From Patellaria atrata CBS 101060 (Eukaryota): a stretch of DNA of 64,000 nucleotides. Positions 1,299-63,651 of this stretch are shown one piece after another. Under the pieces are notes generated by a model. That model did no database searches. It was given only the letters and a program-made list of their open reading frames with translations, and was not told the DNA's origin. The translations under genes were made by a program, and so were the position numbers. The first letter of the stretch is position 1, and each line of letters opens with the position of its first letter. The stretch covers positions 1,091,550 to 1,155,549 of the forward strand of contig MU006094.1 in the NCBI GenBank assembly GCA_010093705.1, given 5' to 3'.

Positions 1299-2434
1299 AT
1301 GCATTTGTCGAGTATGGTACAGAACGGGAGGGATGAACGTCGTGAGGCGCACGATCCCATTCACCAACGACAACTTCATTATTATTCTCAAACTCAAAAC
1401 AAACCGCTTCATTCGCAACACGACATCGTTTCTGCACTTGCTTCGAATCAGTTTGCATCCCAACAGCAGTTGGAATATTCATACCACCAGCGCACCCCTC
1501 AGTCCCCTCCTTCGCCACCCGTAGAAGAGGTTAACAAGCCCTCACTACCTTCGATTTCGAGTCTGCTCGGAATAGCGGATGGTGACCGAGCGAACGGTGA
1601 GAGTGGTATGTAGACGAGAGTATATTCTCGAGAAACTTTTATTAACATCTGTTAGGGCAAAATCAACAACAACACTCTGCAGTGTCACAAAACGTGGTAG
1701 CGGCTGGACAGACACAGGAAACTCGACCTGATCAAACTCCTCAATCTTTTGGCCACACGATCGTGAGCAACCCCAGAATGACTTTACCGCCAACTCCTCC
1801 TATGCAGCCGGATTCCGTCGTTGACGGCAATCAGTCTCCTTCCGCCACCTCGCAGTCGTCAATATCTGCGGCTCCTTATTATCTCGGTTCCTCTCTCAAC
1901 AACATGGAACCACACCAGCAGCGCCAAAATGTACCGACCGTATCAGATACCAAGCGACACCATTCAATGACCATTCATTCGGGTGTTTCTCCTTATAGTA
2001 CCTCGCCGTACGCCACTTCCCCTTATGGATCTTCACCGGGTGCCGCCTCAACAGCTGGCTCATTCTATTCTCCTGACAGCCAAGTATATACTTCATCAGC
2101 CTTGTATCAGCAACGGCCCCTTCCATCAAACTTTCCACCCCCAGTTCCAATCAACCCAGAGACGTCGAACAATCCTTGGCAACATCACCATTATATTAGC
2201 GCGTCTAGTCAAGCTGCATTTCCGCAATCCCAGGATCGTTACATCTGCCAAACGTGTAATAAAGCGTTTTCCAGACCGAGCAGCCTAAGAATACATAGCC
2301 ATAGCCATACAGGCGAAAAACCATTCAAATGCCCACACGCTGGATGTGGGAAGGCCTTTAGCGTTCGAAGTAATATGAAGAGACACGAACGAGGATGCCA
2401 TGCTACGGGATCAACTCCGGCACCAAACCCATAA
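1299..2434 (+). CDS. mtfA: C2H2 zinc-finger transcription factor, MtfA-like; exons 1299-1605, 1656-2434
   Basis: Two C-terminal fingers DRYICQTCNKAFSRPSSLRIHSHSHTGEKPFKCPHAGCGKAFSVRSNMKRHERGCH, plus WQHHHY, LPPTPP and SLPSISSLL motifs as in Aspergillus MtfA. Intron GTATGT..TTAAC..TAG (1606-1655) joins the two ORFs in frame. Confidence 0.85.
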
Positions 2435-5400
2435 AGTAGTAATTATACCATATGTCTAAGAAGGCAGAACACTTGAGGAAGATCGAGGAGATTCTATCCC
2501 TCCGCTAGGCATTGAAAGGGACTATTACATAGCATCCGTAGCATGATGCTTCTGTCTATTCCGAGTTTTGAGACGCTCTATACCACTGCACTTGTCCGGC
2601 GCTAGGCTTTTTTTTTCTATACTTGCGCATCTCACGGGAGTTTGGGGACCTTGGGATGGCGTCATTTACTCAAAATGAATGATCTCTTCATACGAGATTC
2701 TGAATCATGGCTGTATACCTTTTCCTGTTATGTGCTCTTTCCACTAAGATTAAAGATTGGTGTAATCACTTTGGGGATTGCTAAGATATCACTTTCATTA
2801 CTGTACATTAGTAACACTAGCATGAAAAGCTGTAGCTTGCAGTTCTGCATCTGAAATCAAATCGATTATTGCACATATGAGACTCTATTTCTCAATTTTC
2901 CAATAGTGTTACCATGCGCCTGGTGACGAGTTTGGTAAGTGTATCTCACTGTTCCTAGATATGTATCTTGGTTCTTCTCTGCTAACTTGATGAAATAGTA
3001 ACCGCTCCCTGTAACAAGTAGACCTATTAGACGCAGACGGCGATTGTATCGGCTTCTGAATCGGGTCTTAAGTCTCAAGCAGCCGTAACAGATGCTAAAA
3101 AGGATGAGTGCTCCTGCATTTTATAGCCCTGAAGGCCCTTTATGGAGTCGTATCCAAATGTTGCTCAAGTCGTCGCACCGCACACCCGGTATCACTTTAC
3201 AGAAACTGGATTTGGCATGTAGCACACCGTTCTGGCATTATTCCTGGCAGTGGCACTACCCATTTCACCACAGCAGCCTCGTCCAACAATATCCTAGAAT
3301 GATAAACGATCATGATCTACAGCGTCTAGGGCTTCTTTGGAGAGAACGATGTCGCCTTACCCCAGTATAACTCTGCTAGAGCAAGCTACAGTATTGCTTA
3401 AGGGATCCTCGTTAACATGGCGGCAGACTCAATAGAACGGGGATTCCTTTACTCCACCAACGAGATGGCTGCGAATCACGCCTTTTTTGACGAATACAGC
3501 ACGCGATACGGGAAGTCGCTCGAGGTCCACCAACCGCTAGGACCGAAGTCCAGCGACCAGCTCGGTAACATGCATAAGGCCGTCTCTATTAAAGACGCCT
3601 GACAGAATGTCGTTTGCTCACTAACGAACTATTGAAACTACTGGTCCTAGTCTCCGAGAGCATTTGTTTAAACGTTGACCCATATGGAGATCTCCTCCTA
3701 GCGAATCCTCTATAAAAGTTAAGACGCATAGGAGGAAAGCGAAGCGAGGAGACCTGCAGGCACAAATAGCATCGGACGTCGGGAAATGGTCGTTAACTCA
3801 CTATCGGAGCTCAGATTACTGTATTGACAAGGCGTCAAAGGGGTGGTGTTTTCTTGCATTTTCAATTGGCAACGAAGGCCGTCAGTGACGGTCAGTGAAG
3901 GGGAAACATATAGCGGAAAGCGGCGATAAAATCAAATCCGGTTAGAGGTTCCTATTTCAGTGCTGACTTTTCAAGATAGTATCCAATGAATGATGTGTTA
4001 TTTTTCTTGGAGTTCCCTTGGTGTTTGTTTGATTGTTTTCCCCAGGCAAGTGGTGCCCCGGAGTGCATCCCATGTTCGGCTTGTCCCGCGAATGCATTGC
4101 TCCAGGTTTCCCACTACCTGTCCACCTACTGCCCACCTCCCAGTTCTTCCACCGTCCACCGCTGAGACCGCTCCCCACGCCAATTCGGATTCTCTGACCG
4201 CATCTGCCGGAGGACTGTATGAATCCCGAACGAAAGACGCTGTCCTCTTACTTTCCTCCAGTTTTGAATCATGACATGTTGCAGCAGGTTGTCGAGGAAC
4301 AAACGTTGCACCGTAGCGATGTCCCGTCTTTTGCGGCTTCGCCAAACCTGCTGAGCGACTAGTAAAACTGTGCATCTGCAAGGCACTTACGCCAGCAATG
4401 CGGTGGTTATGCGCCGGGCAATTGAGGCCAGCAACAGGGCACGAGGGATATGACGGGACTTGAGGAAGATCTTGAACCAGAATTGAGGTAAAGTTCTGTT
4501 CATCTTATCCTTCGCGAAGACGGCTAGAACTATATCAACGTGGCCCAACTACGATATACGCAAGAAAGTTTTCGTTGTGGCTTGTGAGCACCCGAGACAT
4601 CTAGCAAAACCATGGACATCAAAGCAAACCCTATCATCGTACCCCGGGATAGATATTCGCAGAGTCAGAACTTCCTACGGAAAATGATTTTTTGCTTCGC
4701 TTGCCGTCTTGCATCACACCGCGGCTTGTCAAAGGGTGTTCCTGGGTGTTGCATTGTGTTACTAAAATAGGACTGGAATAGGTACGGTAGTAGCGATAGT
4801 GCATGGAATATATTGCAGACCACCAATTACGATACGAACTCTGTGGCAACTGCATTACATGTTAAAAGAAAACATCTCTGCCGAATGTGGAGGAACCCGT
4901 TATGGACGACGTCGAATATCGTATTTCAATCACAGGACTGGATCATTGCTCCTGCCTCCCTTCCCTTCCAGATGCAATTACACGACGGGTCATGGATCCT
5001 CTCAATATGGCCACGCATAGGAAACAAAGAATCAACCGCACGGGTGATCTACCCGATGCCGCATTTCTTCGATCTGTATCTACTTTTTACAGTACAGTAC
5101 AGCTATCGGTTGGGCACTCAGGCGTGTCAGGATGGCAACAAGCATCGAGCAACATAATAGCCCAAAGCTGTCTCTTACAAGTTACAACGGACAAAACGCT
5201 CGTCCCTCGAACAACGACCGCAAAAAGCTTGGGTTATCCCGTGACCCAAAAACAACACGGAAATAAGGTGACCAGTAGCATATCGATATTGTTTCCTATT
5301 GTAGGTATTCTGTTCTCCTATTTCCGCCAAAGATTTCTTGGAAGCAATGCATTATACATGCAGATCCGAATTTTCGTCTCCTGGAGGATTCTGATCCAAT

Positions 5401-8400
5401 ATTCATGCCCTCATTATTCAGAATTGAGAACCGCAGCTTGTGTTACCAATGTACGATATCGGCTCGTTGATTTCCGATTTTATGCCGTCATTTTAGTAGG
5501 GAACTTGATAGAGAATAGGCAATTAATAGAACTACAGTATTGACTTTCGTAGTTTGAATTATTAGAACACTAAGCATTGAGCAATCACCATCCAATGTCT
5601 CCCCCATAGTCTCGCTGCTCTGTCTCGTGTTGTTGACTTCTGTTCAGGAACTTCGGGAGCAGTTCGCGACGCCGAGTCAGTGATTCCGTCTCAAGAAGCG
5701 ATAGAAACTCCACACTTCCATACCTGCGGCTCCAACCACGACATACCTAACCAGCCACCGTCAGCAACTTCGCATCATCGTACTGCGCAATAATAGCCAC
5801 AGTGAGCGAGTCGTCGTCCCGAAGACGATTCTCTAGATCTACCATACGCAATCCTTTCGCCTACAAGGCGCGCCAGCGGAGAGACCTCAAGCAAGATTTG
5901 TATGAAAACCGCCAATTCATGACCTCTTACGTCCATCAGTTGACTTGACGGGCTGGGAAGATCCCTCAAAGTAGTATTCTCTGAGTTGGACGCCTGACTG
6001 GCATGCAGCGCGATTCTGCAAGAGGATACGCTTTATGGCTGTCTATAATCGCGACATCTACCCCTTCGAAGCGGCCTTGGAATTAATTCCAAAAGTACGT
6101 CTTACAGCGTCCGACACTTCGAAACCCTTTCGACGGCTAGTATCCAGAATGGGACACTCAACAAATCCTGAGAACAGATCATAGCTTCTGCAGCAGGGCC
6201 GTAAACGACCCGTCGGTATCTCGAATACCCAGTTCTAACAATCAGTCTTTTGGATGTTCGTCCTCGTCTCAGAAACTACTCTATCCACCTTCCTCTGTTC
6301 ACACTGTTGCCGCAGTCGAGGTGCAGATCTTACCCTACCACCTATCAAAATCGCAGCTAAGTATGACGGGTGCACTCGACGAACCGCGTGGCAACGTCCG
6401 GGAGTAAGATTTTGCCCATTCTTTCATTCCCGGAGGCGGAAAACGTCGCCGTCGGACGGTGGGCACTGTTCTGCAAGGTCATTTGAGTGGGTGCTTGAGC
6501 TACACTGAGGTTACTTTGTCCACGTCACTCATTGGAATGGGAGTGGAAAGGGGAGACTTGAGAAATCAGACGTGAACCAAGCTGTTCGTTATACGCAATT
6601 TTGAGAAACGGAAAGGTAATCTCGAGGTTCTAGTAAAAAGATGTAATGAGATCAGTCTGTTCATGAGGTAACTATTATTAGGTGTTGTCCCCCCGTGGAG
6701 GAACCTGTAGAATCCGTTACTCCTCGCCTGGAGTGTTTGAGTGAGCACAGAGGTATTCGCAATCGATTCTCTAATGTGGCTCAGCGGCCGTGCTGGTAGA
6801 GACACCTCAGTGTGGCCACGTTGAACGAAAAGCCCCCTCTAGGTCCTCCAGCTCCGGCACATACGCACACATACACACACACAGTAAGGACCAAAGCAAA
6901 TCGCCCCATTCCTTGATAATACGAGCTGCTCCAGTACATTCTCTACTCAACATAGCCACCCCCCCTCCCTCCCCCCTTTTTTTTTTGCTCTACCATACAC
7001 CTGATATACACCAGTATGGGTTTAAAGAGCAGCACACCACGCATTCCCGTCCATACTCCACAACTTACTCCCTAACAGCCCCAGAGTCCATTCAAACTAC
7101 CCGCCTCATTGCTGCTCCGCGGGAAGCTTAAACAGGAGGCTTACAAGCTACTCTTACGTTGGGTCATGAGCTACTTAGTATTGCTCCCTCAGGATGCCAT
7201 ATATATTGCACATATGTCTTAAGTAGTCAGCAGCGGATGTACTATGCCCGATGATTATGACTATTACTCATGTACGACCGGGTGCTATGTGGCCATCGAT
7301 TGAGAGATGATCGAGACGTTATGTCCGTTTCTATAAAGGTAGGTCGAGACGAGGACCATGTTGTCAATTTAACCCGCGTACCTTTTCATCATAGGGGAGG
7401 TATGTATGTGAATTAGGGGTGTGTGCGTACCACTGGCCCCCGAAAGGTTGGATCTGGTCCTGCCCTTTGTGAGTGTGCCTTGGTTGGATAGAGTTCGGTT
7501 AAGGTAGAGGTGGACTTGCTCTATCTTCCGTTTTCGTAGAGAATGCTTGTGATATTTAGGCACGCATCTTGTCCTTGAGTATCCTGTAACGCGTGATTGC
7601 GGATGATGGACATAGTGTCCCTCCGCTCGCAATATGGTGTTTTCTTTACTTGAAGACCGCGAGGAGTTCTTTTGTTATAACTACATGTAACGTACAATTT
7701 ATTCACTCTCTTTATCTTTGAATGATAGCAATTTGGTCATCGTGTAACCAGTATATGTAGAGTTAAATGACGCATTACTTTCCAACTCCTTCCAATATCA
7801 ACATCGAACTGCAAGTATAAACGACCATTCACTTTATCCAATTTGAAACCCGTAAATGAAAGAGGGACCGGTGTCAGTTCTTCAATCCCAGGGTTAGCTC
7901 AGTAGATATGTCCAAGTATGAGGTGAGAAAGAACTGTAGCCGTGACGAAGAAAGTAGGTGTGCTTTATTACTGGACTCTTAGTGTTCTGAATATGACATG
8001 CTGGAAGCAATATCTTTATTTTTGCGGCTACGGAATCAACTCTTGTGGTTTGAGGATAGACATTTCCATAAGGGTGAAACTCGAATAAAAGACATCTGAA
8101 TCATTCCCAACGCGTCATATCCTCACCACTCAAGCATACAACGAGGTGTTCCAAACACTTACCACACACACACCCACCACAATCCGTCCCCATCCCCTTC
8201 ACTAAAACCACCCCCAAAGCTTCCTTAACTCAGCCCTCTCCACCGAACTCCTCCATTATAGCGATACGGCCGAGTCCGTGTGGGCAACAAAGTAACTTGA
8301 TTATGTACCGTCTTTCCTGTAATATTTCCACTAGTCACTTCAAGGCCCAGTGTTCTAGCCACACTGACGATGAATTGCGCTAGGATAGTAGAGAAATCTG

Positions 8401-8783
8401 GTTGCTGGGTTTAGTTTTTCTGTCTGGAAGTTTTGATTTGTGGCTTTTTTTCTTTTGGTTTGGGGTGGGGGGTGTGCTGTGTTTGATATGATGTTTTTTG
8501 GGGGGCGGGTAGAAGGGGGTGAGAGTGGAAGAAGAAGTGTGGAAGGTTGTTTTTGTGGACTGTGTAGACGAGAGGAGACGTGTTCTTTGCTTGAACGTAG
8601 ATATCATGTTTTGATAAAGACTCCATTGTATGAACTTAACTACTTGATTCTCTGCCCTCACACAGTCTCACTCAACCTCGGATTCTCATATACTCATTAG
8701 CACATCACAAATAACTTAGCGCACATCATTCTCCTCTGTTTACGTCCAATACTCCCCGTAAACGCTCAGCAACTCGTCAAAAC

Positions 8784-9524
8784 CTACAACTCGTAACCCA
8801 ACAAACTCCAACCCTTCTTTTCCCCCGGCAACCTCGCCTCCTCAATCTCCTCTAGCGTGACGTTCCTCCACACCTCCCCTGGAATCCAACCAATGTAAGC
8901 CACATTCCCGAACCCGCCAATCCAATACACCTCATCCACGACCAGTCTAACCCACTTGCTCTCATGAATCCTGTTCCCCGGCAACCACCACACAGCATCC
9001 TTATGATTCTTCACAAAGCATTTACTCAGCTCCTTCGCCTCGATAAGGGACGGGTCGATATTCTCAAGATGCCCGATGAGTGACAGCCGTGGCATGGCGG
9101 CCGCGCTGTAAGTCTTGTACGGCGCGTGCCAGCGCAGAGACAACGTGATGTTGGACCCCGCGGCGACGTTTTTGAAACTGGTTGCGATGGTTATGGCGAG
9201 GAGGGTGGGATTGCCGGTTGAGGGCTCGCAGTCCGCTATGTAGTCCATCAAACCGACTGGGGTACCGGCAACGGAGGGGGGGCGGTTCTCTAGGGTGAAT
9301 GCATCGTGGGAGGAGGAGGAGGGGAAGATGGTAGAGAGTGTCCCGATGCTTTCGAGATGGAGGATTCGCCGGCCTAGGACGGCGGAGTCATGGACAGTGG
9401 GGAAGGTGGTGGTGGAGAGCTCGGCGGGGTTGGGGCCGTGGGAATTGGGGTTGGAGAAGAGGTACTGGGGAGAGAGAGAGAAAGCAGCCGAGAGGGGGAG
9501 GATAGGGAGGATAGTGAGGCGCAT
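8784..9524 (-). CDS. Secreted pyridoxamine 5'-phosphate oxidase-like / CREG-family FMN-binding split-barrel protein
   Basis: Intronless 246-aa ORF with an N-terminal signal-like segment, GTLSTIFP, GLMDYIADC, PRLSLIG and YWIGGFGNVAYIGWIP motifs. Confidence 0.8.
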   Translation of the reverse strand: MRLTILPILPLSAAFSLSPQYLFSNPNSHGPNPAELSTTTFPTVHDSAVLGRRILHLESIGTLSTIFPSSSSHDAFTLENRPPSVAGTPVGLMDYIADCEPSTGNPTLLAITIATSFKNVAAGSNITLSLRWHAPYKTYSAAAMPRLSLIGHLENIDPSLIEAKELSKCFVKNHKDAVWWLPGNRIHESKWVRLVVDEVYWIGGFGNVAYIGWIPGEVWRNVTLEEIEEARLPGEKKGWSLLGYEL

Positions 9525-10218
9525 GATAGTATAGGGTATGGTATAAATATCGTAGAGATGGATATAGAAAGAGAAAAGTCGCGCTCAATGAGCTTATGCT
9601 CAGATATGTACAGAGGAGAAGTGCTGTCAAGGTTGATAGAAGGTTAGAGACCTGCTTGAGAAGTATCTCATGACCAGTTCCGAAGCTCGGCTATTGCTTG
9701 TCAAAAAGAATCATTGCTCGTACGATCGAAGAACAGCTAAGAACGCCAAATAGACAAACAACCTGCTTGGAATTTGCACTATTACAGCGTTAATAACGCT
9801 ATAGGGAGTCGATATACGGTGTTGGCAAGACTTGACGTTGCGTGCTCTGATTCAATGATCCGCTTGATCTTATCTTGTCTGATCTTCCATCTCCATTGTC
9901 CTTTCCCACGTGATCCACAACCTTGGGCGACAGAGCTTGGCATTCTTCGGCAACATCCAAATCCCACTCCAAATTTGACTCACAGCGTTTTACGACGATC
10001 TATCCATCGACAACACCGCAAGGTCTAACCAGAACATCTTCATTCGAACCAGTATGTAATCCTACATTCAGAGATTGGTCTTTTAGTCGAAATTATCATC
10101 TTCGAGATTCGCATCCGCCGAGTAGTGCACCTAGAGAACGCTATAGCTAACAATATTCGCCACTTGCAGACTCCTTTCGAATCGACGACTGTCCTCAAGT
10201 TCGATCGCATAATTCAAT

Positions 10219-10589
10219 ATGGGAAAAGTTCACGGAAGTTTGGCGCGTGCCGGAAAGGTCAAGTCTCAGACCCCAAAGGGTGAGTAGAGACCGCACCAAA
10301 TAATTCGGAAGGCATGGAAGCTGCTGTATTGAAGCTGCCTGTAGAAAGCATTCCCAATATTCATCACCGGCGATGTATTCTAGGACGAGAGGCTAATGAT
10401 TCCGATAGTTGAGCCACAGGAGAAGAAGAAGACTCCCAAGGGTCGTGCTAAGAAGAGAATCACATACACCCGCCGCTTCGTCAACGTTACGTTGACCGGA
10501 GGCAAGAGAAAGGTGTGCAATACTCATATATTGAATTGGTACAGTGAATTAACCAATGGCTATAGATGAACCCCAACCCAACCTCATAG
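10219..10589 (+). CDS. RPS30: 40S ribosomal protein S30 (eS30); exons 10219-10279, 10409-10512, 10566-10589
   Basis: Splices to [62 protein letters not shown] with canonical GT-AG introns. Absent from the ORF track. Confidence 0.97.
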
Positions 10590-11428
10590 GTGTTGCAACT
10601 GTCATCTGGGGAGGACGGGATATGCCTGGGTGGATATGATGCTTACTTTATGGTGATACGGGAGGGGAATTACGGTCATGGATCAGAGCAACCGAAGTCG
10701 GGGCAAGATGGCTGTGTATATGTTGCCGGATCGATGGCTTTGCGCTTTGAGAGGAAGGGCATATTTCGGCGTATGATATACGTTCGGGTCTTTCGTGGAG
10801 CTTCAATCCTAACTGGCTTCTTCACTTCTTCGCAATTCTTTTTCCCATGTGAAAATGTGTCATGTGCGCATCTGCAAGTTTTATATTTGTGTAAGGGCTG
10901 GAAACTCTATCGGCATTGATATTGAGTTCAAGGGCTATAGGAGCGAGAATATGACTTTCATATATCGCTAGGCATGTTGATACTTGATTCATTGTTCGTA
11001 TCTGAGTTTTCCTTTCTTCTAGTAGCGTACACTTTGAAGTACTCCTGAGTGAAAAGCACTCGTGTTGGACTTGGAGGAATACAGAAATTGACAATGCCAT
11101 TTTCTCGTCTATTTCAAGGGTTGTAGTAATGCATACTCCCATTTCTACCATTCAAAACGACTGAATATTACTGAGTTTGTACGGAGTATACTAAACGATA
11201 CCTTTGTAATATTCGGGTTGAGGTTGCACTACGATATTTATCTACTTAGGGCTGGATTCCAAATAAGGTTAGTTTAGCATACCATGGATTCTGATAATCT
11301 AGCACGCACCACCTTGAACGTCACTTGCCAAGCTTGCACCTTAGCTCAACTACGACTTCACCTCTGTTTCCCAAAGATCATATTATCAGATGTAAAGTTC
11401 CTCACGAATCCCGATTCTCCCATTAGAT

Positions 11429-22700: not shown

Positions 22701-24219
22701 ACTGGCATCTAATCAATCTTTGACAGGCACGACAGGTTGAGAGAGTTGAGGTTGGAGTGGTCCCGCAGATCGACTGGAAGCGAATCGAGCCAGTGACGGG
22801 ATGAAAGCCGTCATGAAAAGCTTGGCCTTGATGTTAGTTCCGCCTAGGGCAAACTAGGCCGGCGGTAAATCAACCTCTCAGGCTCTCAACACCCACAGAC
22901 CATCCCCAAACTCCCACCACCTCCATAGCCCTTGATGCAACTGCAGGCACTTCGCCGCTTTCATTCGTTGCGCATCTCTTCGATCCCGGATGAATACGAA
23001 CCCTAATCCCTCTGTCGACCTCCCGGATCTGGGAAGACTGGTGGAGAATTATCCATCCCCTTAGGTCCATTTTGCTTTGGTGAGGCCTGATGTTGATCCT
23101 CTGAAGGATTCGGTGAGAATGAATTCTCCCGGGTAAGACATAACTCAAAGATCTGAGCTGATTTATGATGGTATAGATTACGCATTGAGCTCTTGATGAA
23201 GAGTAATTCCATGAAGGGGAAAAGCAAATCGACGCATGAAAAGTGAATATTGAAAAGATTGTTAAGATGCGAACGATATGCTTTTGTGGCGTCCAGTACG
23301 CAAGGGCGTCGAAGGAGTCGAAGCACGTATATCCCCCAGTGGGCCCCCGCTCAGCACGGCTGTACGGGTGCTAAAGTCTTAGAAAAATGCGTAAGCTCGG
23401 TCCGGCCCTCTTTCCTGGCGGCTGTATGCCTCTCGATAAGATATTCAGTATCTTTTTCGCCTTTGGGGGTGATCGCCACAAATCATTTTTGGCCAATGTT
23501 ACAGGTCAACGTACCGCCAATCGCTGCTAAGGAAAGTCTTTTGCTCTCAAAAGTCCCTAGAAGGACAAGGAGCATGGCATCGGAGCTTGTGGATATGTAG
23601 CTCTGCCTTTGCTTTGCACAACTTTTGCCCTGCCATGAGTCTCGTGTCCCCGGCTCATCACACCTTGGCCCAATAGAATTCATGTGCAAGCGGTTGCGTG
23701 CAACCTACCGTTGGCGTGCGATACTGACTGGCCTGGACCCCTGCATGCAGATTCTCCGCTTCCGCAAGGGACATATGTAACCATTGTCCGCTCCATCCTG
23801 TTATCGCGACTTTGCTTCCTGCGAACCTTTTCCCCACAGCTGTCTGAGTGAACGACCTCTTTACATCTTGTCTCTCTTTTCTCGTTCAATTGTTGTACTA
23901 CTGTGGCTTCATATAATCCCCTCTTGAGGAAGCAGGAATTCCCAAGGACTCCCATAGGAAGAACCACCACCATATAGAAGACCTGTAAACAACTACCATC
24001 TCCACTATACCCAGCGGATCCACTTGTGTTTCACACCGCAAGTCTCATCTAAAATCGGAATTTTGCGCCTGATAGATCATAAGTTGTGCCTTGAAAAATC
24101 AAGATCCTACTCACACTGTTATGTTATAACCGGTTTGGCGACCTCCCGCCTTCAATAGGACCTGGCGAAAGTACCATTCAGTTCATCAAAAGCGTTGACG
24201 AATATTGACCACATCCAAA

Positions 24220-26726
24220 ATGCCTGCACTCCCAGAGTTACTCGCCGAACGGGCAGGCATTGCACTTGAGAGTTTGGAATCAGCAGTTTCAATAGCAGAA
24301 AGAGAAGTTACCGGAGCATTGGTGACTCTAATCAAAAGAGTCAACATTCCATTCAACGACACCAGTCCTGCTGGACTAATCGAGGCGAATACGAGAGATC
24401 CTTTCAGAAAGAGTGGGAAATATGCATTGGGTTGGGTGTACTTTTGTATCATCCTTTTGGTTATTGCGTCTTTGCTGCGTTTCTACCATCTTTTCACGGA
24501 TAAGATCCGCACAGCTCTTTATCAAGAAGAGGTAGCCAAATCCTCAACCACCTCATCCCCTGACACTGATTACGAGTTGTCAGTCCTTGATACTGACAAG
24601 TCAACCAATAAGTTCTTCCCAAGGACAGGACAATTACCTGCTCCTCCTAAAGCACAGTCTTCAGTCTCATCGCTTGGGCCTTTAAACAACCTCATAGCGC
24701 TGTTCAGATTCGTATTCTATCACCCGATCCCAATCATTCGATTGAAGAAAGGATGGAGGCCGATTGTCCTCCCCTCCTTAGGAGTTACAATCATCGTTGT
24801 GGCGGCCTTGATTTTCGTCACCCTGTATACTTTCCTCCCTCAACCTCTATACTGGCAAAGTATGGAATTCGGTTCGCCTCCACTTGCGGTCCGTTCCGGC
24901 ATGCTTGCAGTATCTATGGTACCTTGGATCGTTGGATTGAGCATGAAAGCGAATCTCATCTCCTTCATGACCGGAATCGGACATGAAAGACTCAACGTAC
25001 TACACCGATGGGGTGGCTACTTGTGTCTGTTCTTAAGTCTTATCCATACGATCCCTTATTACATCACCCCAGCTTCTGATGAGGAAGGCCTCCGAATCTT
25101 CAAATCTTACTTTCCGAATAGCAACATTTACATATACGGTTCCGGTACGTAAGCCTCTTTCAAACGATACAATGTTCTAACTTGAATGCAGGTATCGCTG
25201 CACTTGTTCCCCTGCTCTTCCTTTGCGTGCATTCCCTGCCGCAATTTCGGAGACGAATGTACGAGTTGTTCGTTGCTCTACATGTACCAGTTGCAATGGT
25301 ATTCCTCGGAATGCTATTTTGGCACTGCCGGAATTATCTTACATCTTACCACTATCTCTTCTCAACTCTGGCCATCTGGGTGTTGTCTTACATTATGAGA
25401 CTTTTCTACCTGAACTGGTCCAATCCGTGGCGGATGTCCTGGCTTATCGGTGATGAAGCGTCCGTCACGCTCATGCCAGAGAACGCCATCAAGGTGACGA
25501 TACCGACACAAGTACGATGGAGACCCGGTCAATACGTCTACCTTCGGATGCCGGGAATCTCAGTATTCGAAAATCATCCCTTCACTATTGCCTCCCTTTG
25601 TAGCGAAGACTTCCCATCCGAGTATGGTGAAGGTTACAGGGATATGGTTCTGGTATTCCGTCCTTTCGGTGGTTTTACCAGGAAGGTTCTTGAAAGCGCT
25701 TATGAACATGGTCCTTGGCATACCTACCGTGCTTTTATCGACGGTCCATATGGTGGTATGCAAAGACGCATTGAAGCCTTTGATCATGTTGTCCTTATTG
25801 CTGGCGGTAGCGGTATCACTGCAATCGTTAGTCAATTGCTTGATCTGATCAAGCGGATGCGTGACGGAAAAGCAGTCACAAAGAGTATTCAGGTACTATG
25901 GGCTTTAAAGCGACCTGAAACCATGGAGTGGTTTAAGGAAGAGCTCAGAATCTGTCGGGAATATGCACCACCGGACTCCGTTCAATGTCAGTTCTATATT
26001 ACCGCTGCTAAACGTCAGGCAAACACTGGTCACCTGGTGAGCGCACAAACACCGACTCGACCAGTCAGCATGTTCTTCCACGATAAGGTCAACGATGCAT
26101 TCCAGGATATTGCCGATAAGAGATTTTCTGGATTGTCAACTAAGAGACATTCTGCCCTTATCAGAGATGAGGCACGAGGTGACCCAGAACGAGAGAAAGA
26201 GTTGCGCCGAGAGAATGAGGATGCAATCACTGCTCTTCCCCAAGCTCATGTTGTGACTCGTAGTGCATCCCGAGGACATCTTGCACCACCTCACATTGTT
26301 CAACCTACACCAATCAGATCGCTAGCAGAGAAGCGACGATCCAGAAATCTAAGTCTCGACATCAATGCCGCCGTAGATGCAGGATCTGCTGCGCTTGATT
26401 CTCAAGCACAAAATAACTCCAAATCATTCGATTTTGGTTTCCCTTCAACTCCAACCGAATTCCAAAAGAACTTGATGAGGTTCGCTTTCTTACCCGCTGC
26501 TGTCAAAAAGAAGGACGGTTGGAGTACAGAATACGGACGTCCCGATATTCCTTTCACCCTCAAGCAATTCAGCAAGGACTTCGGGCGCCGAACGTGCGTG
26601 TTCGTTTGCGGTCCTCCAAGCATGAGAATAGACGTTAGCAACACAGTCGCAGAACTACAACGTGACGTATGGAGTGATCCCGAGAAAGACGAAATCTTCC
26701 TCCACGCGGAGAATTACGCCATATAA
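24220..26726 (+). CDS. Ferric/cupric reductase (FRE family flavocytochrome); exons 24220-25144, 25192-26726
   Basis: Transmembrane segments with haem histidines (LHRW..LIH, LH..WH), FAD motif HPFTIAS, and NADPH motifs DGPYG, LIAGGSGIT and VFVCGP. Confidence 0.92.
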
Positions 26727-31836: not shown

Positions 31837-33258
31837 CAGGGGGTGCAGGAATTCGTTGCGCACGGATCTCAACACCAAAACACACCTTCAATTCCTGGTA
31901 AACAATCAACTTCAAACAGCCAAAATGGCACCACCACATACACCTACCAAGCTAAAAAAGGTAGTACGCGATACGCCGCGTCGCATACGTTTCTTTGATA
32001 CCTATGATGCCCATAAGAACGAGCTATCATTGCGTAAAATCTGTCGAAAACGTGGTGTTCGCCTACCAGAATCAACAGCGCGTTTCTGGCTCAAACAACG
32101 TGAGCAACAAGGCTCGCAAGCACTGCGTAGAACACGGAGCCAGAGTTCAAAACTGGGCCGTCCAAATACGTACGATTAGAACGAGCTGAAGCCTTTATTC
32201 AATCCTTCATATCCTCTACATGACGCGTCCTATAATGCTGTTGTGTGCGAAGCACACCTAGGAATCAAACTACGTACGTTGAAGGGCAATACGAAGCGTT
32301 ATTTTGGTGGCCAACGCTATAAGAAACGGCGTACCAAAACCATTTCTAAACGGAACCGCGATAAGCGTGTTTTGTACGGCCAAACACACCAAAATAAGAC
32401 AATTACTGGCCTTTGGCAGTACGTCTACTTCACTGATGAAGCACATTTCAAATCCAAAGACCTAGGGAATAAGAGGGAGTATGAATTCAGCATTCCAGGC
32501 CACACACCTGTTGGTTTAGAGCATACCGACGAAAACACGCTTAATGTTACGCTGCATGTGGCCGCGGGAATCACGTACAACCATAGAGGTGTTATTACAT
32601 TCTACAACGATCCAAAGAGCCCAGAAATCAATCAAAAGGTTGTTCCAAGGCCCCCTAAGCGTACCAAGTATGATAACGATCAAACATATAATAAACGGCT
32701 TGCTGATTGGCACGCGGAACACACACATCCAATAGATCCTCAAGCAGATATTCCACCTAAGGGGAACGCAATGACGCAGCGATTTTATGCCAAAGAGGTC
32801 CTACCATTGCATCTTGAATATCTGCGTTGGCTTGAGGCCAAATACCAGCGTAAATTCTACTTCCAAGAAGATAACGATCCCTCGCATGGTACTAGGTCAA
32901 CAAACAACGCGTGCTATAAGGCAAAACTAGCTTCAGGTGTCCAATTGCTGGATCATCCTGCGCAATCACCTTATTTAAATCCTATAGAGGGTATTTGGAA
33001 TATAATAAAACAGCGATTGCGTGGTAGTAAGTAGAAAACAGTAGATGAATTCAAGCAAGCAATTCTGGCAGAATGGCGTAAAGTAACAATTACACAATTC
33101 GCCACCACATCAGGGAGATGCCTAGGCGCTGTAAGGATGTAATAGATGCAAACGGGGATCGAATCAAGTCAGAATTGTGGTAATAAACGTGTTTTTGGTG
33201 ATATTTGATTGTGTTGAATTTTGACGTTGAGCGTGCGCAACGAATTCCTGCACCCCCG
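31837..33258 (+). mobile_element. Tc1/mariner-superfamily DNA transposon (~1.42 kb), non-functional copy
   Basis: Perfect 26-bp inverted repeat GGGGGTGCAGGAATTCGTTGCGCACG (31839-31864 / 33232-33257). TA follows the right end; the left flank reads CA, so that boundary is uncertain by 1-2 nt. Confidence 0.9.
31925..33183 (+). pseudogene. Tc1-like DDE transposase pseudogene
   Basis: HTH-like N-terminus, YFTDEAHF, FQEDND, SPYLNPIEGIW. In-frame TAGs at 32177 and 33032, and a frameshift near 33097. Confidence 0.9.
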
Positions 33259-57433: not shown

Positions 57434-58632
57434 TCAACGGGCGAGGTTGGGTGGGGGCTCGGTTCGTGGACCTTGAGCGGTAACATAGGCCTTGGTCATA
57501 CCGCCGTCAACGGCGAAGTCCATCCCGTTGCAGAAGCTTGCTTCATCTGATGCTAGGAAGAGGACGCCCTGAGCACACTCAATAGCTTCGCCGAAGCGTC
57601 CCGATGGGAAGTGGATTTCGCGGCGGTGACGCTTGGCTGCATCGTCTCCAAGCCAGTTTTGAAGAAGAGGGGTGCTAAAAGTTGTCAAAGGAATTTTACT
57701 CCAATATATAAGGGAGATATACTTACTTCAATGGCGCAGGACAGAGAGCATTGAATCTGAAACCCTCCTTTGCGTGAACGATTGCAAGTTCTCGGGTCAT
57801 AGCAAGGACTGCACCCTTGCTTGCGGTGTACGCCAGCTGAGGCGTTGCGCTACCAACCAAAGCGACAACACTAGCAGTATTGATTATGCTGCCATTGTTC
57901 TTGCCATGCTTGCGAAGACTCATCACTGCATGCTTGCTACCATACCATACACCCTTGACGTTGATATTGTGAGTCAAGTCCCAGATTTTCTCAGAGGTAT
58001 CAATTGCATCAGCATCATCTGCGTGCATGATACCGGCATTATTGAACATGACATCAACACCACCCCAAGCATCAACATAATCAACAGCTGCTTTGACATC
58101 AGCCTCTTTTGAGACATCAACTTTAAGCGTCTCCAGCTTCAGGTGATGTGGTGCTAACTCTTTAGCTTTTGCCAATCCCTTCTCAAGTGCAGCTTCGGAG
58201 ATGTCGGTCATGAGCACATTTGCACCTTCGCGGGCGAATAGAACGGTAGTTTCCAGGCCGATACCTCTGAGTCATCGTCAACAAATGAGTTCAGAAACGC
58301 GATGAGAAACGGCAACGAAAGATGCAGAGTCAAATGAAAGTGGAGTACAGTATTTGCTTAAAAGAATAGCATAACGCATGCTGTAGCTGGAAGTATGTTT
58401 TGTTGAAAAGTAGCAGATAAGGTAGAAGTTCCGAAAAGGGTATCTGAAATAAGATAATGCATATGAAATCTCTATGGGTGAGACGCACCACTTGCCCAAT
58501 GTCTTTCCGGAAAAAGCCATGAAATAATGGAGATTATAGTAATTGAAATAATAAGACATATACCCACCCAGCGGCTCCTGTAATGATAGCATTCTTTTCC
58601 GCTAAGCGTCCTCTGCGCATATCGCTGCCCAT
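57434..58632 (-). CDS. Classical short-chain dehydrogenase/reductase; exons 58632-58568, 58266-57727, 57674-57434
   Basis: ITGAAGGIG, FNNAG, IINTAS, catalytic YTASK, NALCP and VDGG motifs. Confidence 0.93.
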
Positions 58633-59620
58633 GTTGAATGATACCGCAAGCTCGATTGACGGAAGTTTTTGTTTCCTCTAGCGGAATATTGTGATCAGCA
58701 ATTGACGTGAATGAGCCTTCGTTTTGTTAAGTGTTACGATATCCAATATCAGAAGGGTGAGTCGTCGATGGTTGCCGTATTGGGCATCAAGCATAAAGAA
58801 AGGCCCAACGGAGTCGGTAGGGAAATATTGACTTACAGGATATTGTCTTTGACCGAAGAAGGAGATTGGAAGACTAGATTGATATGTTTCAAGAAAGACT
58901 CCGAGACTTATTAGAACGTTGAATGTTGATGTACAAAGAAAAGTTGATAAAGTAGTGTGTGAGTCTCGGGGTTGTAAGGAATGTCTACTCCGAAAACGGC
59001 CGGTTCCTATTAGATAAGAGCTAAGTGGGTTTCGAGAAGCCGGCAGCCAACCAATTCAGTTATAAGTCATAAGAATTCGAGATTAAGGTCATGTATGATG
59101 AATCAGCCAGTTCTAGATGATGTTTTGACATTGTGACTCCTGTTGACTGGGTAATACTTTGCATCTTGTGATGTTGCCACTCTGTTCAAAGGATGCGCAT
59201 GCATTCACCGGCGGCTAAGGTAGAACTACGAGTAGACGGACGGAACAGATCATCTTCCGTAGAACTACGCTAAGCCTAACCGCCTATTGTCGGGATTTGT
59301 TACGGAATACGGTTTGAGTGGAGTCTGAGAGATGGATAGAGAGCGGAAAGATTGTCTTTGTCGGAAAGCCTTCCACCAGACTCCGTAGTTCTACCTATGT
59401 ACCGTGCCGTACCGTACAAGTAGTTAGGTTATGATTAACCATGTCGATGAGAAAAGGACATGCGTCCCATAAGCCTACCTTAGGGAATGCAAAAAGAGGT
59501 ACAGAACAGTCCTGTACAGTCCTGTACAGTCCTGTAAGATTGGCTCAGGGGGATAAGAAGAGTTAAGAGATGGAATGGGTTCGTTCGAAGAAGACGATAA
59601 GTAACAATAATAGGAGAAAT

Positions 59621-59700
59621 AAGGTAAGGAAAGGTAAGGAAAGGTAAGGAAAGGTAAGGTAAGGTAAGGTAAGGTAAGGTAAGGTAAGGTAAGGTAAGGT
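59621..59700. repeat. (AAGGT/AAGGA)n pentanucleotide microsatellite in the SDR/GS-like intergenic region
   Basis: 16 consecutive 5-bp units. Confidence 0.95.
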
Positions 59701-60089
59701 AGGCGAAGATTAAAGCATGCGAAAGGACGGAGTAAGGTAAGGTTATACTTGTATGAAGCTCTAAAGGTATGAACGCCGAGTGATCCGCGATAGGTTAGTG
59801 GGGTATAAGCTTCCCCCAGCAAGCACCAGCCACAGCATCATCCCGTAGCCCTGGGTCATACCTTCCTTATCTCATCTCTGTACCTACCTCCCGTACTATT
59901 GTACCTACCGAATCTCCCACCTCAACAGTATCCAAGACAACTTAGAACTCGTTATTTGTATAGTACTCATAATAGTTCCAGATACCTAGAACCCCAAAAC
60001 ACTCCACCTCCAGATATCTTAAACCGTCCCCAGTCCATTACCCCTACACTCCGTACAGACTCCCCTTCTCTCTCATCCCCGCTCCAGCT

Positions 60090-61800
60090 ATGACGGAGCT
60101 AAATCCCCGTGAAATCACCGTTGCGAACCTTCCGGAGCTCCTCAAGGATGACACAGGAGTAAAAGTCGCTGGTGTAGATGTCGATGGAATCCTGCGCGGC
60201 AAGTTAATGGCTAAAAAGAAGTTCCTTCAGATCGCGCAGGAAGGTTTTGGTTTCTGTTCGGTAATCTTCGGCTGGGACATGCATGATCGAACATATATTA
60301 AAGAGCTCAAGATCAGTAACAAAGAGAACGGATATAGGGACGTTATAGCTATTCCAGATCTCACTAGTTTCAGGAGGATACCGTGGGAGAAAAACGTCCC
60401 CTTATTTCTTGTTAGCTTCTACGACCCAGATACGATGAATTCGTTGAGTACATGTCCGCGATCTCTACTGAAAAGAATAACGGACAAACTGGCCGCGAGT
60501 GGATATGGGGCCATGGCTGGAGGTGAGCTATGGAGCTATGAAGCTATGGAGCTCTGAACAGCTTCTCCCACCTCTCTAATGTGGAGGCTAACAATGTCCC
60601 TTGCAGCGGAATATGAATTCTACACCTTCAGAGCACCGTCCAAGCCCGGAACGAACGAACGAAATTCTGCAGCTACTGCCACCTTCCTACGCCAGAATCC
60701 TGTGAACGAGCTTCCATCATTGACAGAAGGCATGTTTGGCTATAGCCTATTGGATCCAGTACATAACCAGGACTTCTACTATGGTGTATTTGACACCTGT
60801 TCACAATTCAGATGTGGCATTGAAGGCTGGCATACGGAGAGTGGTCCCGGTGTGTTTGAAGCCGTAAGTCTATAGTCAAAGGCACAATTACAACGTCACA
60901 GCTAAGTTTCTACCCCAGGCCCTAGAATACGGAGAGATCATGGAAATGGCGGATAAAGCCTGCTTATTCAAGTAAGTAATCTTTACCTGGGCATTGCCCC
61001 TCACACACCGACTAACATCCCCACAGACTCGTCACCAAGTCCATAGCGAGCAAATATGGCATAACACCCTGTTTCATGGCCAAGCCGCGTGAAGGACTCC
61101 CCGGTAACTCCGGCCATATGCACGTCTCTCTCGTCTCCAAAGACGGCAAAAACCTCTTTGCACGTGACTCGCCCGATCCAGACGCAAGATGGTCAGACAT
61201 AGCTGGGCTCTCGGATCTAGGACGACACTTTTTAGCCGGCCTTTTAGACGGTTTACCAGACGTCATGCCAATCGTTGCACCAACTGTCAATTCGTATAAA
61301 CGGCTCGTTGAGAACTTTTGGGCGCCAGTTACCGTATCCTGGGGTCTCGAGCATCGCGCAGCATCGATACGAGTAATCGCTCCTCCAACCGCATCTCCTA
61401 AGGCTACGAGATTCGAAGTCAGGGTTCCCGGCGCAGATACCAACGCTCACTTCGTTCTCTCCGCTATCCTAGCACTCGGATGGCGAGGCGTTGAGAAGAA
61501 GCTGGAGATAAGCGTACCCCCGCTCGGTAAGGGTGAGGATGTGGGAGGTGCATCTGATAAGGGTGTTAGACTTGCGAAGAGCTTGAAGGAAGCGACGGCA
61601 AGGTTTATGGCTGAAGGGAGTGTTGCGAGAGAGGTGTTTGGAGATGAGTTCGTGGAACATTTTGGTGGAACGAGAGAGCATGAGGTTAGACTTTGGGATG
61701 AGGCGGTTACGGATTGGTATGTTGATGTCTATTGCTTCTATATTTCTGTTCAACTAATGTAATCTCCAGGGAGGTCCGACGATACATCGAGATGGTATGA
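60090..61800 (+). CDS. Prokaryote-type (GSI-like) glutamine synthetase-family gamma-glutamyl ligase; exons 60090-60522, 60607-60863, 60919-60971, 61027-61716, 61770-61800
   Basis: DVDGILRGK, EYEFY, HTESGPGVFE, FMAKP..GNSGHMHVS, NSYKRL, WGLEHRAASIR and RFEVRVPGAD motifs; ends VTDWEVRRYIEMV. Not the eukaryotic GSII. Confidence 0.92.
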
Positions 61801-62583: not shown

Positions 62584-63651
62584 ATGCAGCGCTATATCCT
62601 CAACCTACGACTTCTAACACCTTCAATTTCCACACGCCTCTACCATCCATCCAAAGCCCATCGTCCACAGTTTCAATCGCCCCCCAAACCCAGATTCCAC
62701 ACCACAATCACCACAATGTCCCAATCTAAAGCCTGTACGCCTCTCAACCCCCCCACCTCCCCTCCCATCCTCTCCTCCCATCCCCTCCAGAACTAACCCA
62801 CACAGGCTGCACCGTTCCCCCCGCCACCGCAACAAACTACACCCCCAAAGGCACCTACACGACCCTCCCCCCCTCCTCCCACTCCCTGAAAACCTACGTC
62901 ACCGGCCCCGAAGACGCCCCCACGGCCCTCCTCATAATTTACGACATCTTCGGCTTCTACCCTCAAACGCTCCAAGGCGCCGACATCCTCGCGTCCGCCG
63001 ACCCCTCCCACCCCCGCCGCGTCTTCATGCCCGACTGGTTCGAGGGCGCGCCCTGTCCGCTGGAATGGTATCCCCCCGACACGGCCGACAAGAAAGAGAA
63101 AGTGGGGAAATGGTTCAAGGAGAAAGCCGGGTTTGAGACCCATCTCCCGCGCATCGCGGAGGTGGTGAAAGAGCTCAAGCGGAGTACCGGGATCAAGGAT
63201 TGGGGGCTCGTGGGGTACTGCTGGGGCGGGAAGGTCGCGGGGCTGTTGAGTGGGGCGGAGAGCGAGTTCAAGGCGACCGCGGTGTGTCATCCCGCTTTCG
63301 TGGACCCGGCGGATGGGGAGAAGATCGCGCGCCCGTTTTTGATGGTCCCGAGTGGGGATGAGGACGAGGGGGATGTGGGGAAGTGGGAGGAGAAGGTCAA
63401 GGGCGTGAAGAAGGTGGTATGGTTTAAGGGGCAGGTCCATGGATTTATGGCTGCGAGGTCGGTTGGGTTTCTACTTCCTTCTTACACCTTTCCTTTTTCG
63501 TTAATTGTTATTCCCTGTTTTTGATGCTTGGGTGATGAGGGATAAATGCTGACGTTTGTGTTGCAGAGGCGATCTTGAGGACGAGAATGTCCGGAAAGCG
63601 TATGAGGAGGGTTACGGGCTCGTGCTTGATCACTTCAAGGAGCACTTGTAA
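62584..63651 (+). CDS. Dienelactone hydrolase-family alpha/beta hydrolase; exons 62584 (or 62716)-62734, 62806-63457, 63567-63651
   Basis: MSQSKACCTVPP..YTPKG..YDIFG..MPDWF..GYCWGG (Cys nucleophile)..HP..QVHGFMAARGD. Confidence 0.9.

Follow-up and report, generated by a model that had tools for sequence, protein, structure and literature searches.

A divergent gene pair of a glutamine synthetase-like ligase and an SDR in Patellaria atrata, and a predicted fungal gamma-glutamylation route for amino alcohols

Gene models and intergenic region of the divergent pair

The analysed window, a 64-kb stretch of Patellaria atrata DNA, contains a gene for a predicted GSI-like gamma-glutamyl ligase (P0001, 487 amino acids) at 60090..61800 on the forward strand, and a gene for a classical SDR (P0121, 277 amino acids) at 57434..58620 on the reverse strand. 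The two genes are located head to head with 1,469 nt (58621–60089) between their start codons, and both were found where the original prediction had placed a GSI-type ligase and an SDR facing each other across a 1.46-kb promoter. The ligase gene is split by four introns into exons at 60090–60522, 60607–60863, 60919–60971, 61027–61716 and 61770–61800, and the SDR gene by two introns into exons at 58620–58568, 58266–57727 and 57674–57434, the last exon of each including the stop codon. The GT..AG splice models of both genes matched the P. atrata database proteins letter for letter. An alternative in-frame ATG for the SDR is present at 58632, use of which would shorten the intergenic gap by 12 nt. 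In Pfam searches, the large exon of the ligase was assigned to Gln-synt_C (PF00120, 2.7e-58) and the SDR exons to adh_short_C2 (3.8e-39 and 2.3e-09), with adh_short also matched. Two sequencing runs covering the locus, from one sample of one study, represented genomic contigs continuous through the introns and the intergenic region, and have no bearing on expression.

Within the 64-kb window, no ALDH, C26/GATase or PuuD-like gene was detected, and queries with PuuD and GATase returned no gamma-glutamyl hydrolase from either the window or the fungal loci carrying the pair. A dienelactone-hydrolase-family gene (62730–63470) follows downstream of the ligase, and was observed near the ligase in eight loci including the window. 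It was considered as the missing hydrolase, but since the bacterial clusters described below have no counterpart, it was not counted as a part of the system.

The intergenic region (58621..60089), which is the common divergent promoter region of the two genes, includes five HGATAR sites (58945, 59012, 59595, 59788 and 59867) and a (TAAGG)16 microsatellite (59620–59701). In 31 orthologous divergent intergenic regions, the HGATAR density was 5.30 per kb against 2.03 per kb in the flanks, a control that includes coding DNA, and 217 sites were observed against 122.7 ± 11.4 in shuffled sequences. The intergenic region of the window was not itself enriched in GATA (8 against 6.9 expected). Besides GATAAG, the enriched intergenic k-mers TTCAACAT, AAGAATGC and GCTGGGTAA were rejected as promoter motifs, as they derive from the sequence around the SDR start codon, from its first exon and from its splice donor. 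On the basis of the site counts, nitrogen status probably acts on the common promoter through GATA factors.

Active site, class and relatives of the ligase

Residues of the ligase were mapped by alignment to E. coli GlnA, the numbering of which is followed here. The complete set of metal, ATP and glutamate residues was retained in P0001, with E129, E131, Y179, E212, E220, G265, H269, H271, R321, R339, R344, E357 and R359 kept. Lys takes the place of both ammonium residues, D50 and S53, Trp that of the flap residue E327, and Pro that of N264, and the sequence FCSVIFGWD occupies the position of FDGSS. The alignment thereby agrees with the original prediction, in which the metal, ATP and glutamate motifs were seen as kept and FCSVIFGWD as standing in for FDGSS. 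The same signature, loss of D50, S53 and E327 with Trp in the flap, is described for the 4HPP gamma-glutamyl ligase and FluG in the available part of a published study (PMC6478659). PF00120 is the only domain in the 487 amino acids of the ligase, and the FluG-type N-terminal amidohydrolase is absent.

Database sources label the ligase as 'glutamine synthetase', and its best NCBIfam score (227.8 bits) was obtained with the type I GlnA model TIGR00653, as would be expected of a second true glutamine synthetase serving in ammonium assimilation. This score is, however, far under the model cut-off of 429.15, the residues D50, S53, E327 and N264 are all substituted, and the phylogenetic tree separates the ligase from E. 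coli GlnA as well as from the GlnA-like paralogs; a role as true glutamine synthetase is accordingly considered highly improbable. The model for PuuA, gamma-glutamylputrescine synthetase (NF045547), was likewise failed, with 164.2 bits against a cut-off of 650. By domain content and residue pattern, the ligase fits the GS-like gamma-glutamyl-amine ligases and not true GS, with its activity being a prediction from sequence. The MoGLN1-3 proteins of Magnaporthe were dropped as relatives, as they had been chosen with a yeast Gln1 query and, in the accessible part of the report, could not be tied to P0001 (PMC8229676).

In a quick IQ-TREE phylogeny (LG+G4, with SH-aLRT as the only support measure), the fungal ligases formed a clade which grouped with ligases of Burkholderiales in a separate group (support 96). 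The P. atrata ligase belongs to this old fungal clade, the nearest bacterial kin of which, from Burkholderiales, show 40–49% identity. The SDR-linked actinobacterial ligases formed a clade of their own (support 99), comprising nine of the ten ACT rows, two operon-linked PAR rows and two unnamed representatives. The fungal ligase was positioned outside this GlnA4-type clade, in a sister clade, and was 28–33% identical to the SDR-linked actinobacterial ligases. E. coli PuuA (25% identity, 142 bits) was outside the clade of fungal and Burkholderiales ligases. The best solved structural relatives were 11zs and then 5dm3, the latter presumably the Chromohalobacter salexigens enzyme.

A ligase 36–49% identical to the fungal one was present in 42 of 301 Burkholderiales genomes. 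At the 20 loci fetched (L196–L215), ALDH was found in 17 and a C26 peptidase in 11, and annotated examples further carry genes for an Fe-alcohol dehydrogenase and for an amino-acid/ethanolamine-type permease, joined at locus L196 by those for a neighbouring SDR and a choline/ethanolamine kinase. The alcohol dehydrogenase of these clusters is mostly Fe-ADH and not an SDR like that of the fungal pair; the SDR adjoining some of the ligases was only 31–34% identical to the fungal SDR, a close relative of which was present in one of the 301 genomes.

The SDR, its bacterial operons and conservation of the pair

The SDR P0121 carries TGAAGGIG, NNAG, NTAS and YTASK, which represent the classical SDR set (TGxxxGxG, NNAG, S...YxxxK), together with the string IINTASVVALVGSATPQLAYTASKGAVLAMTREL ... 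VDGGMTKAYVT quoted in the original prediction. An Asp residue, read from the sequence, follows strand beta-2 (VLMTD), and in the established SDR classification this is typical of NAD+-using oxidative SDRs. The best NCBIfam family was NF004713 (PRK06057) with 265.5 bits, 53 above the next family and below the equivalog cut-off of 404. With the same model, four SDRs of canonical GS-C26-ALDH-SDR operons scored 443–457 bits, and six other bacterial SDRs, five of them ligase-linked, 285–330 bits. Identity of the fungal SDR to the closest bacterial and operon SDRs was 45–58%. In the SDR tree, with a small outgroup of 12 SDRs, the fungal clade (support 100) was nested within a clade (support 99) with L001, L002, L003 and L117, three of these four being ligase-linked. 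In Protein Atlas, the clusters nearest to the SDR were bacterial SDRs, most commonly of Actinomycetota, which was taken as a lead only.

Gene neighbourhoods followed the same pattern. At 21 genome loci with the SDR, three of the four closest (51–54% identity) had a GS-like ligase immediately upstream of the SDR and an ALDH immediately downstream of it, and the 17 more distant loci were all without a ligase. A close SDR was found in 108 of 401 Actinomycetota genomes, almost always as one copy. When 80 of the 111 places were fetched, a GS-like ligase was found at 68, ALDH at 66 and C26/GATase at 38; where at least 7 kb was available on both sides (n=48), the respective counts were 48, 43 and 28. 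The association of this SDR with bacterial ligase operons, as stated in the original prediction, is substantiated by the top family NF004713, the nesting within a ligase-linked clade and the ligase at 68 of 80 actinobacterial loci. In the phylogenies proposed along with it, the SDR groups with the ligase-operon SDRs as anticipated, whereas the ligase does not join the actinobacterial GlnA4-type clade and belongs to its sister clade. With the ligase outside that clade and only 28–33% identical to its members, the ligase and the SDR therefore trace to different types of bacterial system. Being nested within bacterial ligase-operon SDRs, the fungal SDR may, judged from the tree, have been acquired by horizontal transfer.

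Pairing in fungi was counted in those non-redundant metagenomic loci, 34 in number, in which the sequence extends 2.5 kb or more upstream of the ligase. An SDR ortholog was located upstream of the ligase in 29 of them, in divergent orientation in 25 and in tandem in four; in five loci, the SDR was not beside the ligase. A further tandem pair was found in a shorter metagenomic locus outside the 34. Pairing also held in five of the six named species present in both the ligase and the SDR match lists: in Agyrium rufum and Vezdaea aestivalis the two locus tags are adjacent, and Aulographum hederae has the genes on separate contigs. Among the named matches, orthologs of ligase and SDR also come from Aspergillus and Penicillium species. 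Conservation of the pair, which the original prediction had set out as a check, was thus confirmed in both collections. According to the best named match, the pair loci cover relatives of Dothideomycetes, Leotiomycetes, Lecanoromycetes and Sordariomycetes, and both proteins are about 80% identical across ascomycete classes. In five fungal loci, one orthologous ALDH (copies 65–95% identical) adjoins the pair in two arrangements. With only 25–32% identity to PuuC and to the ALDHs of the bacterial operons, and with generic best matches in NCBIfam and PDB, it was rejected as an ortholog of the operon ALDH.

Divergent pairs are frequent in compact fungal genomes, and the pair is missing in five of the 34 loci and in one named species. 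The adjacency could thus be a frozen accident, in which unrelated housekeeping genes of separate pathways are kept together by a bidirectional promoter, chance or chromatin constraint. Yet the genes persist as neighbours despite a change of orientation (tandem in four of the 34 loci and in a fifth, shorter one) and over relatives of the four classes named by best match, the two families are independently linked at 68 of 80 bacterial loci and at all 48 of those with full flanks, and five loci have a pathway-type ALDH beside the pair, in two arrangements. This explanation is already disfavoured, and we regard it as improbable.

Proposed pathway and comparison with known systems

The reading preferred here, and considered fairly probable, is that the pair encodes the enzymes for successive steps in a predicted route by which an amino alcohol is gamma-glutamylated and oxidised, ethanolamine being the leading candidate. 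In the first step, as suggested by the ligase active site and its relatives, the ligase would use ATP to form gamma-glutamyl phosphate and transfer the glutamyl group to an amine and not to ammonia, so that the resulting gamma-glutamyl amide masks the amino group. Next, as the gene linkage in fungi and bacteria suggests, the NAD-type SDR would oxidise the free hydroxyl of the amide to an aldehyde. An aldehyde dehydrogenase, the gene for which adjoins the pair in some fungi only, would then produce the acid, which would be gamma-glutamylglycine if the amine is ethanolamine. Finally, a gamma-glutamyl hydrolase or general breakdown of gamma-glutamyl peptides would release glutamate and the product; the locus holds no candidate for this step. 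Because ALDH and gamma-glutamyl hydrolase are absent from the window, the 'deprotect' part is a predicted one. The original prediction of a fungal protect-oxidise-deprotect amine pathway gains support from the SDR grouping, the conserved pairing and the lost ammonium residues, and each of its refuting conditions that was examined came out in favour of it. As the pair is conserved across ascomycetes and matches bacterial operons, an as yet undescribed fungal counterpart of the bacterial ethanolamine-type amine breakdown pathway probably exists. A published fungal example of such a ligase-SDR gamma-glutamylation pathway was not found in our literature search.

The same two-enzyme logic could serve a different hydroxylated amine (an aminopropanol, serinol, or an amine of sphingoid or secondary-metabolite type) or another purpose, i.e. 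production or remodelling of a gamma-glutamylated signal or developmental metabolite, as has been suggested for FluG and for the GSI-like proteins of plants. The available text of one study ascribes a gamma-glutamyl ligase with the Trp-for-Glu signature, in an unidentified pathway, to FluG's C-terminal region (PMC6478659), and in the part available of another, theanine is the one exception among the unidentified products of GSI-like proteins (PMC9909507). In Beauveria bassiana, 'FluG-like' genes with the GS domain only influence tolerance of stress as well as virulence, and knockouts of such fungal genes have pleiotropic stress and virulence phenotypes with no nitrogen-source defect reported in the accessible part of the publication, which would count against a catabolic reading if the gene concerned is an ortholog of the ligase (PMC9426541). 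Moreover, identity of about 80% across ascomycete classes is more than a dispensable catabolic route would lead one to expect, and the hydrolase is absent from the locus. Against a signalling purpose, the bacterial kin of both proteins are located with permeases, ALDH and C26 hydrolases in a catabolic layout, the Asp after strand beta-2 of the SDR points to oxidation of the NAD+ type, and the enrichment of GATA sites suits nitrogen-regulated catabolic genes. Another amine or purpose is on the whole rather unlikely.

With regard to the origin of the amino-alcohol route, we tentatively propose as a possible scenario that Pezizomycotina rebuilt a bacterial-style amine-detoxifying module from components of different ancestry, in which an ancient fungal GSI-like ligase and an SDR nested in bacterial operon SDRs became fixed as neighbours, with the ALDH joining at some Dothideomycete-like loci. 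The ligase is kingdom-wide, occurring also in chytrids, Glomeromycota and yeasts.

GSI-like proteins occur widely among fungi and plants, with products that are mostly unknown; to our knowledge, FluG is without a substrate after decades of study. Theanine is, according to the available part of the report, the first GSI-like protein product to be identified (PMC9909507). Given the conserved pairing of ligase and SDR, the substrate of one fungal ligase found across the kingdom is narrowed down to hydroxylated amines; the pair also exemplifies how genes of primary metabolism can be clustered in operon-like fashion in a eukaryote. With the predicted route, gamma-glutamylation would become a part of the nitrogen and phospholipid-headgroup metabolism of fungi, and the labels 'glutamine synthetase' and '3-oxoacyl-ACP reductase / glucose 1-dehydrogenase', common in the two families, would be corrected. 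Should the scenario of mixed ancestry hold, amino alcohols, e.g. ethanolamine from phospholipid turnover, would be the first substrate class to be defined for the large family of eukaryotic GSI-like and FluG-like proteins, and eukaryotic ethanolamine catabolism would exist separately from the known bacterial lyase system.

Among known systems, FluG resembles the ligase in its GSI-like catalytic domain and in the Trp replacing the flap Glu, but differs from the 487-amino-acid protein by its N-terminal amidohydrolase domain. The FluG-like (FLR/FlrA) class is defined by the GS catalytic domain only, which is also the layout of the ligase (PMC9426541). In the available parts of the two publications on these proteins, no mention of an SDR partner or an amine substrate was found (PMC9426541, PMC6478659).

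The protect-oxidise-deprotect logic and the ligase superfamily are common to the fungal pair and the E. coli Puu pathway. The latter consists of PuuA ligase, PuuB oxidase, PuuC ALDH and PuuD hydrolase. PuuA is likewise without D50 and S53, with Tyr at the flap position. Unlike the fungal pair, the Puu pathway oxidises the amino group by an FAD oxidase and not a hydroxyl by an SDR.

The proteobacterial amino-alcohol gamma-glutamylation systems, to which the Chromohalobacter salexigens ethanolamine route belongs, include the closest bacterial ligases, those of the Burkholderiales clusters, which group with the fungal clade. These clusters hold an alcohol dehydrogenase, ALDH, C26 hydrolase and permease; in contrast to the fungal pair, the alcohol dehydrogenase is mostly Fe-ADH, and the neighbouring SDR is 31–34% identical to the fungal one.

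In Streptomyces coelicolor, the glnA4-type ethanolamine cluster SCO1610-SCO1615 includes the SDR SCO1611, ALDH SCO1612, GlnA4 (SCO1613) and an amidotransferase/hydrolase (SCO1615), and the available part of the source (PMC6529630) states the SDR, ALDH and hydrolase content as given in the original prediction. The oxidation and hydrolysis steps after GlnA4 are themselves predictions (PMC6529630). The actinobacterial loci were equated with this published cluster by gene content alone. Unlike the glnA4-type cluster, the fungal locus has two intron-bearing genes on a common promoter and no operon, it is without hydrolase, regulator and permease, and its ligase is outside the glnA4-type clade (28–33% identity). 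Like that cluster, it links a GS-like ligase devoid of the ammonium residues to an NF004713-type SDR, which nests among the operon SDRs with 45–58% identity, and in some fungi an ALDH is linked as well.

The divergent gene pair and its intergenic region

Stop-to-stop ORFs and Pfam scans revealed two genes at 57434–61800 of the window, one for an SDR (minus strand) and one for a Gln-synt_C protein (plus strand). Queries with the largest exon of the ligase gene and with the SDR exon returned P0001 (487 aa, 100% identity) and P0121 (277 aa), respectively, both listed under Patellaria atrata CBS 101060. The two proteins were reproduced exactly by a splice search with GT..AG introns, which confirms the pair of SDR and GS-like ligase genes noticed in the original prediction. 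Exons of the ligase gene are 60090–60522, 60607–60863, 60919–60971, 61027–61716 and 61770–61800 (plus strand), those of the SDR gene are 58620–58568, 58266–57727 and 57674–57434 (minus strand), and the start codons lie 1,469 nt apart. The first ligase intron (60523–60606) contains a short tandem repeat, GAGCTATG, in 3.6 copies at 60525–60558.

Directly downstream of the ligase gene, a gene of the dienelactone hydrolase family was identified by Pfam scan (62730–63470, plus strand); this family occurred near the ligase in eight loci, i.e. the window and L041, L058, L097, L102, L103, L111 and L115. No aldehyde dehydrogenase (ALDH) or C26/GATase gene was found within the 64-kb window. Elsewhere on the plus strand, an ORF at 32180–33034 matched the DDE_3 superfamily endonuclease (4.4e-08) and is probably a transposase remnant, and two neighbouring ORFs at 24199–26726, with ferric-reductase transmembrane, FAD-binding and NAD-binding domains, presumably represent a single intron-split ferric reductase/NOX-type gene.

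GATAAG-type words led the k-mer ranking across 31 divergent intergenic regions, where 217 HGATAR sites were observed versus 122.7 ± 11.4 in mononucleotide shuffles. The density of HGATAR was 5.30/kb in these regions versus 2.03/kb in the flanks and 1.7–4.3/kb for eleven cores of the same composition. The window's own intergenic region was not enriched in HGATAR (8 sites versus 6.9 expected), and three of the window's own sites were located in the first SDR intron. Judged from these motif counts, control of the pair by GATA nitrogen regulators would fit. A pentanucleotide microsatellite, (TAAGG)16, lies inside the shared promoter at 59620–59701, and the assemblies of two public runs were broken around it (59615–59710).

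Conserved pairing and altered ligase pocket

P0001 and P0121 were each about 77–85% identical across ascomycete classes. Six named species were common to both match lists, and in five of them the ligase and the SDR lay on contigs of equal length, the exception being Aulographum hederae; in Agyrium rufum and Vezdaea aestivalis the ligase and SDR locus tags were adjacent. A metagenome scan with P0001 retained 80 loci (71 non-redundant). In 34 of these the sequence on the upstream side of the ligase spanned 2.5 kb or more; the SDR ortholog was present there in 29 (25 divergent, 4 tandem) and absent in 5. Judged by their best named matches, these loci are similar to Dothideomycetes, Leotiomycetes, Lecanoromycetes and Sordariomycetes. 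The pairing is thus conserved in fungi, contrary to the refuting condition of the original prediction that it would not be. In the fungal metagenome loci L084, L085, L100, L101 and L102/L103 both genes share one strand, the SDR preceding the ligase with gaps of 273–3,377 nt, and the pair has therefore been inverted yet kept together. One orthologous ALDH (copies 65–95% identical) was linked to the pair in five loci similar to Alternaria, Paraphoma and Cenococcum; two of them have it downstream of the ligase and three on the far side of the SDR. No PuuD-like or GATase match was obtained in any fungal locus searched.

Alignment of P0001 to E. coli GlnA and PuuA (sequences from NC_000913.3) showed that all residues binding the two metals, ATP and glutamate are kept, and the ammonium-handling residues are missing, with the positions of GlnA D50 and S53 falling within the FCSVIFGWDMHD region, Trp at flap Glu327 and Pro at N264. 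Thus, the altered ammonium pocket beside intact metal, ATP and glutamate motifs was borne out. According to PMC6478659, the gamma-glutamyl ligase 4HPP and FluG have likewise lost the Asp and carry Trp in place of the Glu. With the GlnA, type III GS and PuuA models, the scores of P0001 fell far short of the curated thresholds.

P0121 carries TGAAGGIG, NNAG, the catalytic set of Ser and YxxxK, and an Asp after strand beta-2. In SDRs, an Asp at this position typically indicates NAD preference, and P0121 would accordingly prefer NAD. Its top NCBIfam model was NF004713, at 265.5 bits, 53 bits over the next model and below the 404-bit cut-off. Orthologs of the SDR also appear under Quercus suber and Carpinus fangiana; they are 80–81% identical to the fungal protein and probably stem from fungi contaminating these plant assemblies.

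Kinship to bacterial ligase operons

When one genome per prokaryotic species was scanned with the SDR, 21 loci were obtained, the four closest (51–54% identity) being from Chloroflexota, Verrucomicrobiales, Acidimicrobiaceae and Actinomycetota MAGs. Of these four, three had a GS-like ligase directly upstream and an ALDH directly downstream on the same strand, and the fourth had ALDH, HAD, GATase and aminotransferases without a ligase; a ligase was absent from all of the 17 loci with more distant SDRs. In L002, a Verrucomicrobiales MAG locus, an SDR 51–53% identical to the fungal SDR closes a cluster (392–10762) that encodes a phosphodiesterase, two ALDHs, aminotransferases of classes V and III, a HAD hydrolase and a class I GATase. 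No GS-like ligase is present within 10 kb, and the cluster has the look of one for aminophosphonate or amine catabolism employing the same SDR.

Among 401 sampled Actinomycetota genomes, 108 (including the unpublished G092 and G124) matched the SDR at E ≤ 1e-55, nearly always once, with 45–56% identity. From 111 places, 80 were analysed (ranks 1–83 minus G004, G092 and G124, the 28 weakest being left out), and these contained a GS-like ligase in 68, ALDH in 66 and PuuD-like C26/GATase in 38; where both flanks reached 7 kb or more, the respective counts were 48/48, 43/48 and 28/48. In the commonest layout (30 loci), ligase and ALDH precede the SDR on one strand, frequently with C26/GATase in between, and four SDRs from this layout scored 443–457 bits with NF004713, over the cut-off. 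A quick ML tree placed the fungal SDRs (100*) within a 99* clade that also holds bacterial SDRs, three of four ligase-linked; three SDRs adjoining Burkholderiales ligases and 12 others were outside, in a small outgroup sample. The SDR-ligase operon link named in the original prediction is upheld by these loci and the tree.

For the ligase, 9,584 relatives of P0001 were found by HMMER among 1.84 billion representatives; names, known for some, extend the fungal clade to Glomeromycota, Kickxellomycotina, chytrids and Saccharomycotina yeasts. In three genomes with GS-SDR-ALDH operons, the operon ligase matched P0001 best (189–197 bits versus 108–144 for paralogs), apart from one tying G003 paralog (190 bits). 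This second GS-like paralog, in the Acidimicrobiaceae locus L031 (G003:C31; 190 versus 189 bits for the operon-linked ligase), lay apart from both main clades in the tree, beside three unnamed representatives.

The closest named bacterial ligases were from Burkholderiales (Collimonas, Glaciimonas) and Verrucomicrobiota. A ligase 36–49% identical to P0001 was present in 42 of 301 Burkholderiales genomes, and the 20 loci fetched had ALDH in 17 and C26 peptidase in 11; annotated examples also had Fe-alcohol dehydrogenase, permease or ABC transporter. The Burkholderiales locus L196 (964–14000) is the fullest amino-alcohol gamma-glutamylation cluster among the loci of this analysis, with FAD oxidoreductases among its annotated genes and with eight genes on one strand: FAD oxidoreductase, permease, SDR, adjoining GS-like ligase (46–49% identical to the fungal ligase), Fe-ADH, C26 peptidase, ALDH and choline/ethanolamine kinase.

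In a quick 95-row ligase tree (LG+G4, SH-aLRT only), a 96* clade united the fungal ligases. It joined 16 of the 20 ligases from Burkholderiales clusters (unstarred support of 93), within a further 96* clade. A separate 99* clade was made up of the SDR-linked actinobacterial and Chloroflexota ligases, and PuuA and GlnA were outside both. A close SDR (55% identity) occurred in one of the 301 Burkholderiales genomes, beginning 6 nt past a ligase gene. The two proteins thus trace back to gamma-glutamylation clusters of different bacterial branches.

A candidate amine pathway

Gene pair, residues, operon kinship and conservation together support the proposed amine pathway as a candidate. An amino alcohol, probably ethanolamine, would be acted on first by the ligase and next by the SDR, a succession that we consider moderately likely. 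The same chemistry could instead serve another amine or a signalling role, which we regard as rather unlikely. In the literature searched, with most subscription journals outside the search, neither a fungal gamma-glutamyl amine pathway nor enzymology of a P0001-type ligase was found, and reports on glutamylethanolamide were all bacterial. In gene content, the actinobacterial SDR operons found here match the glnA4-type ethanolamine cluster of S. coelicolor (SCO1610–SCO1615) of PMC6529630, a paper in which the post-ligase steps are predictions as well. The candidate ligase-SDR pathway would be a new eukaryotic variant of a kind of pathway known in bacteria.
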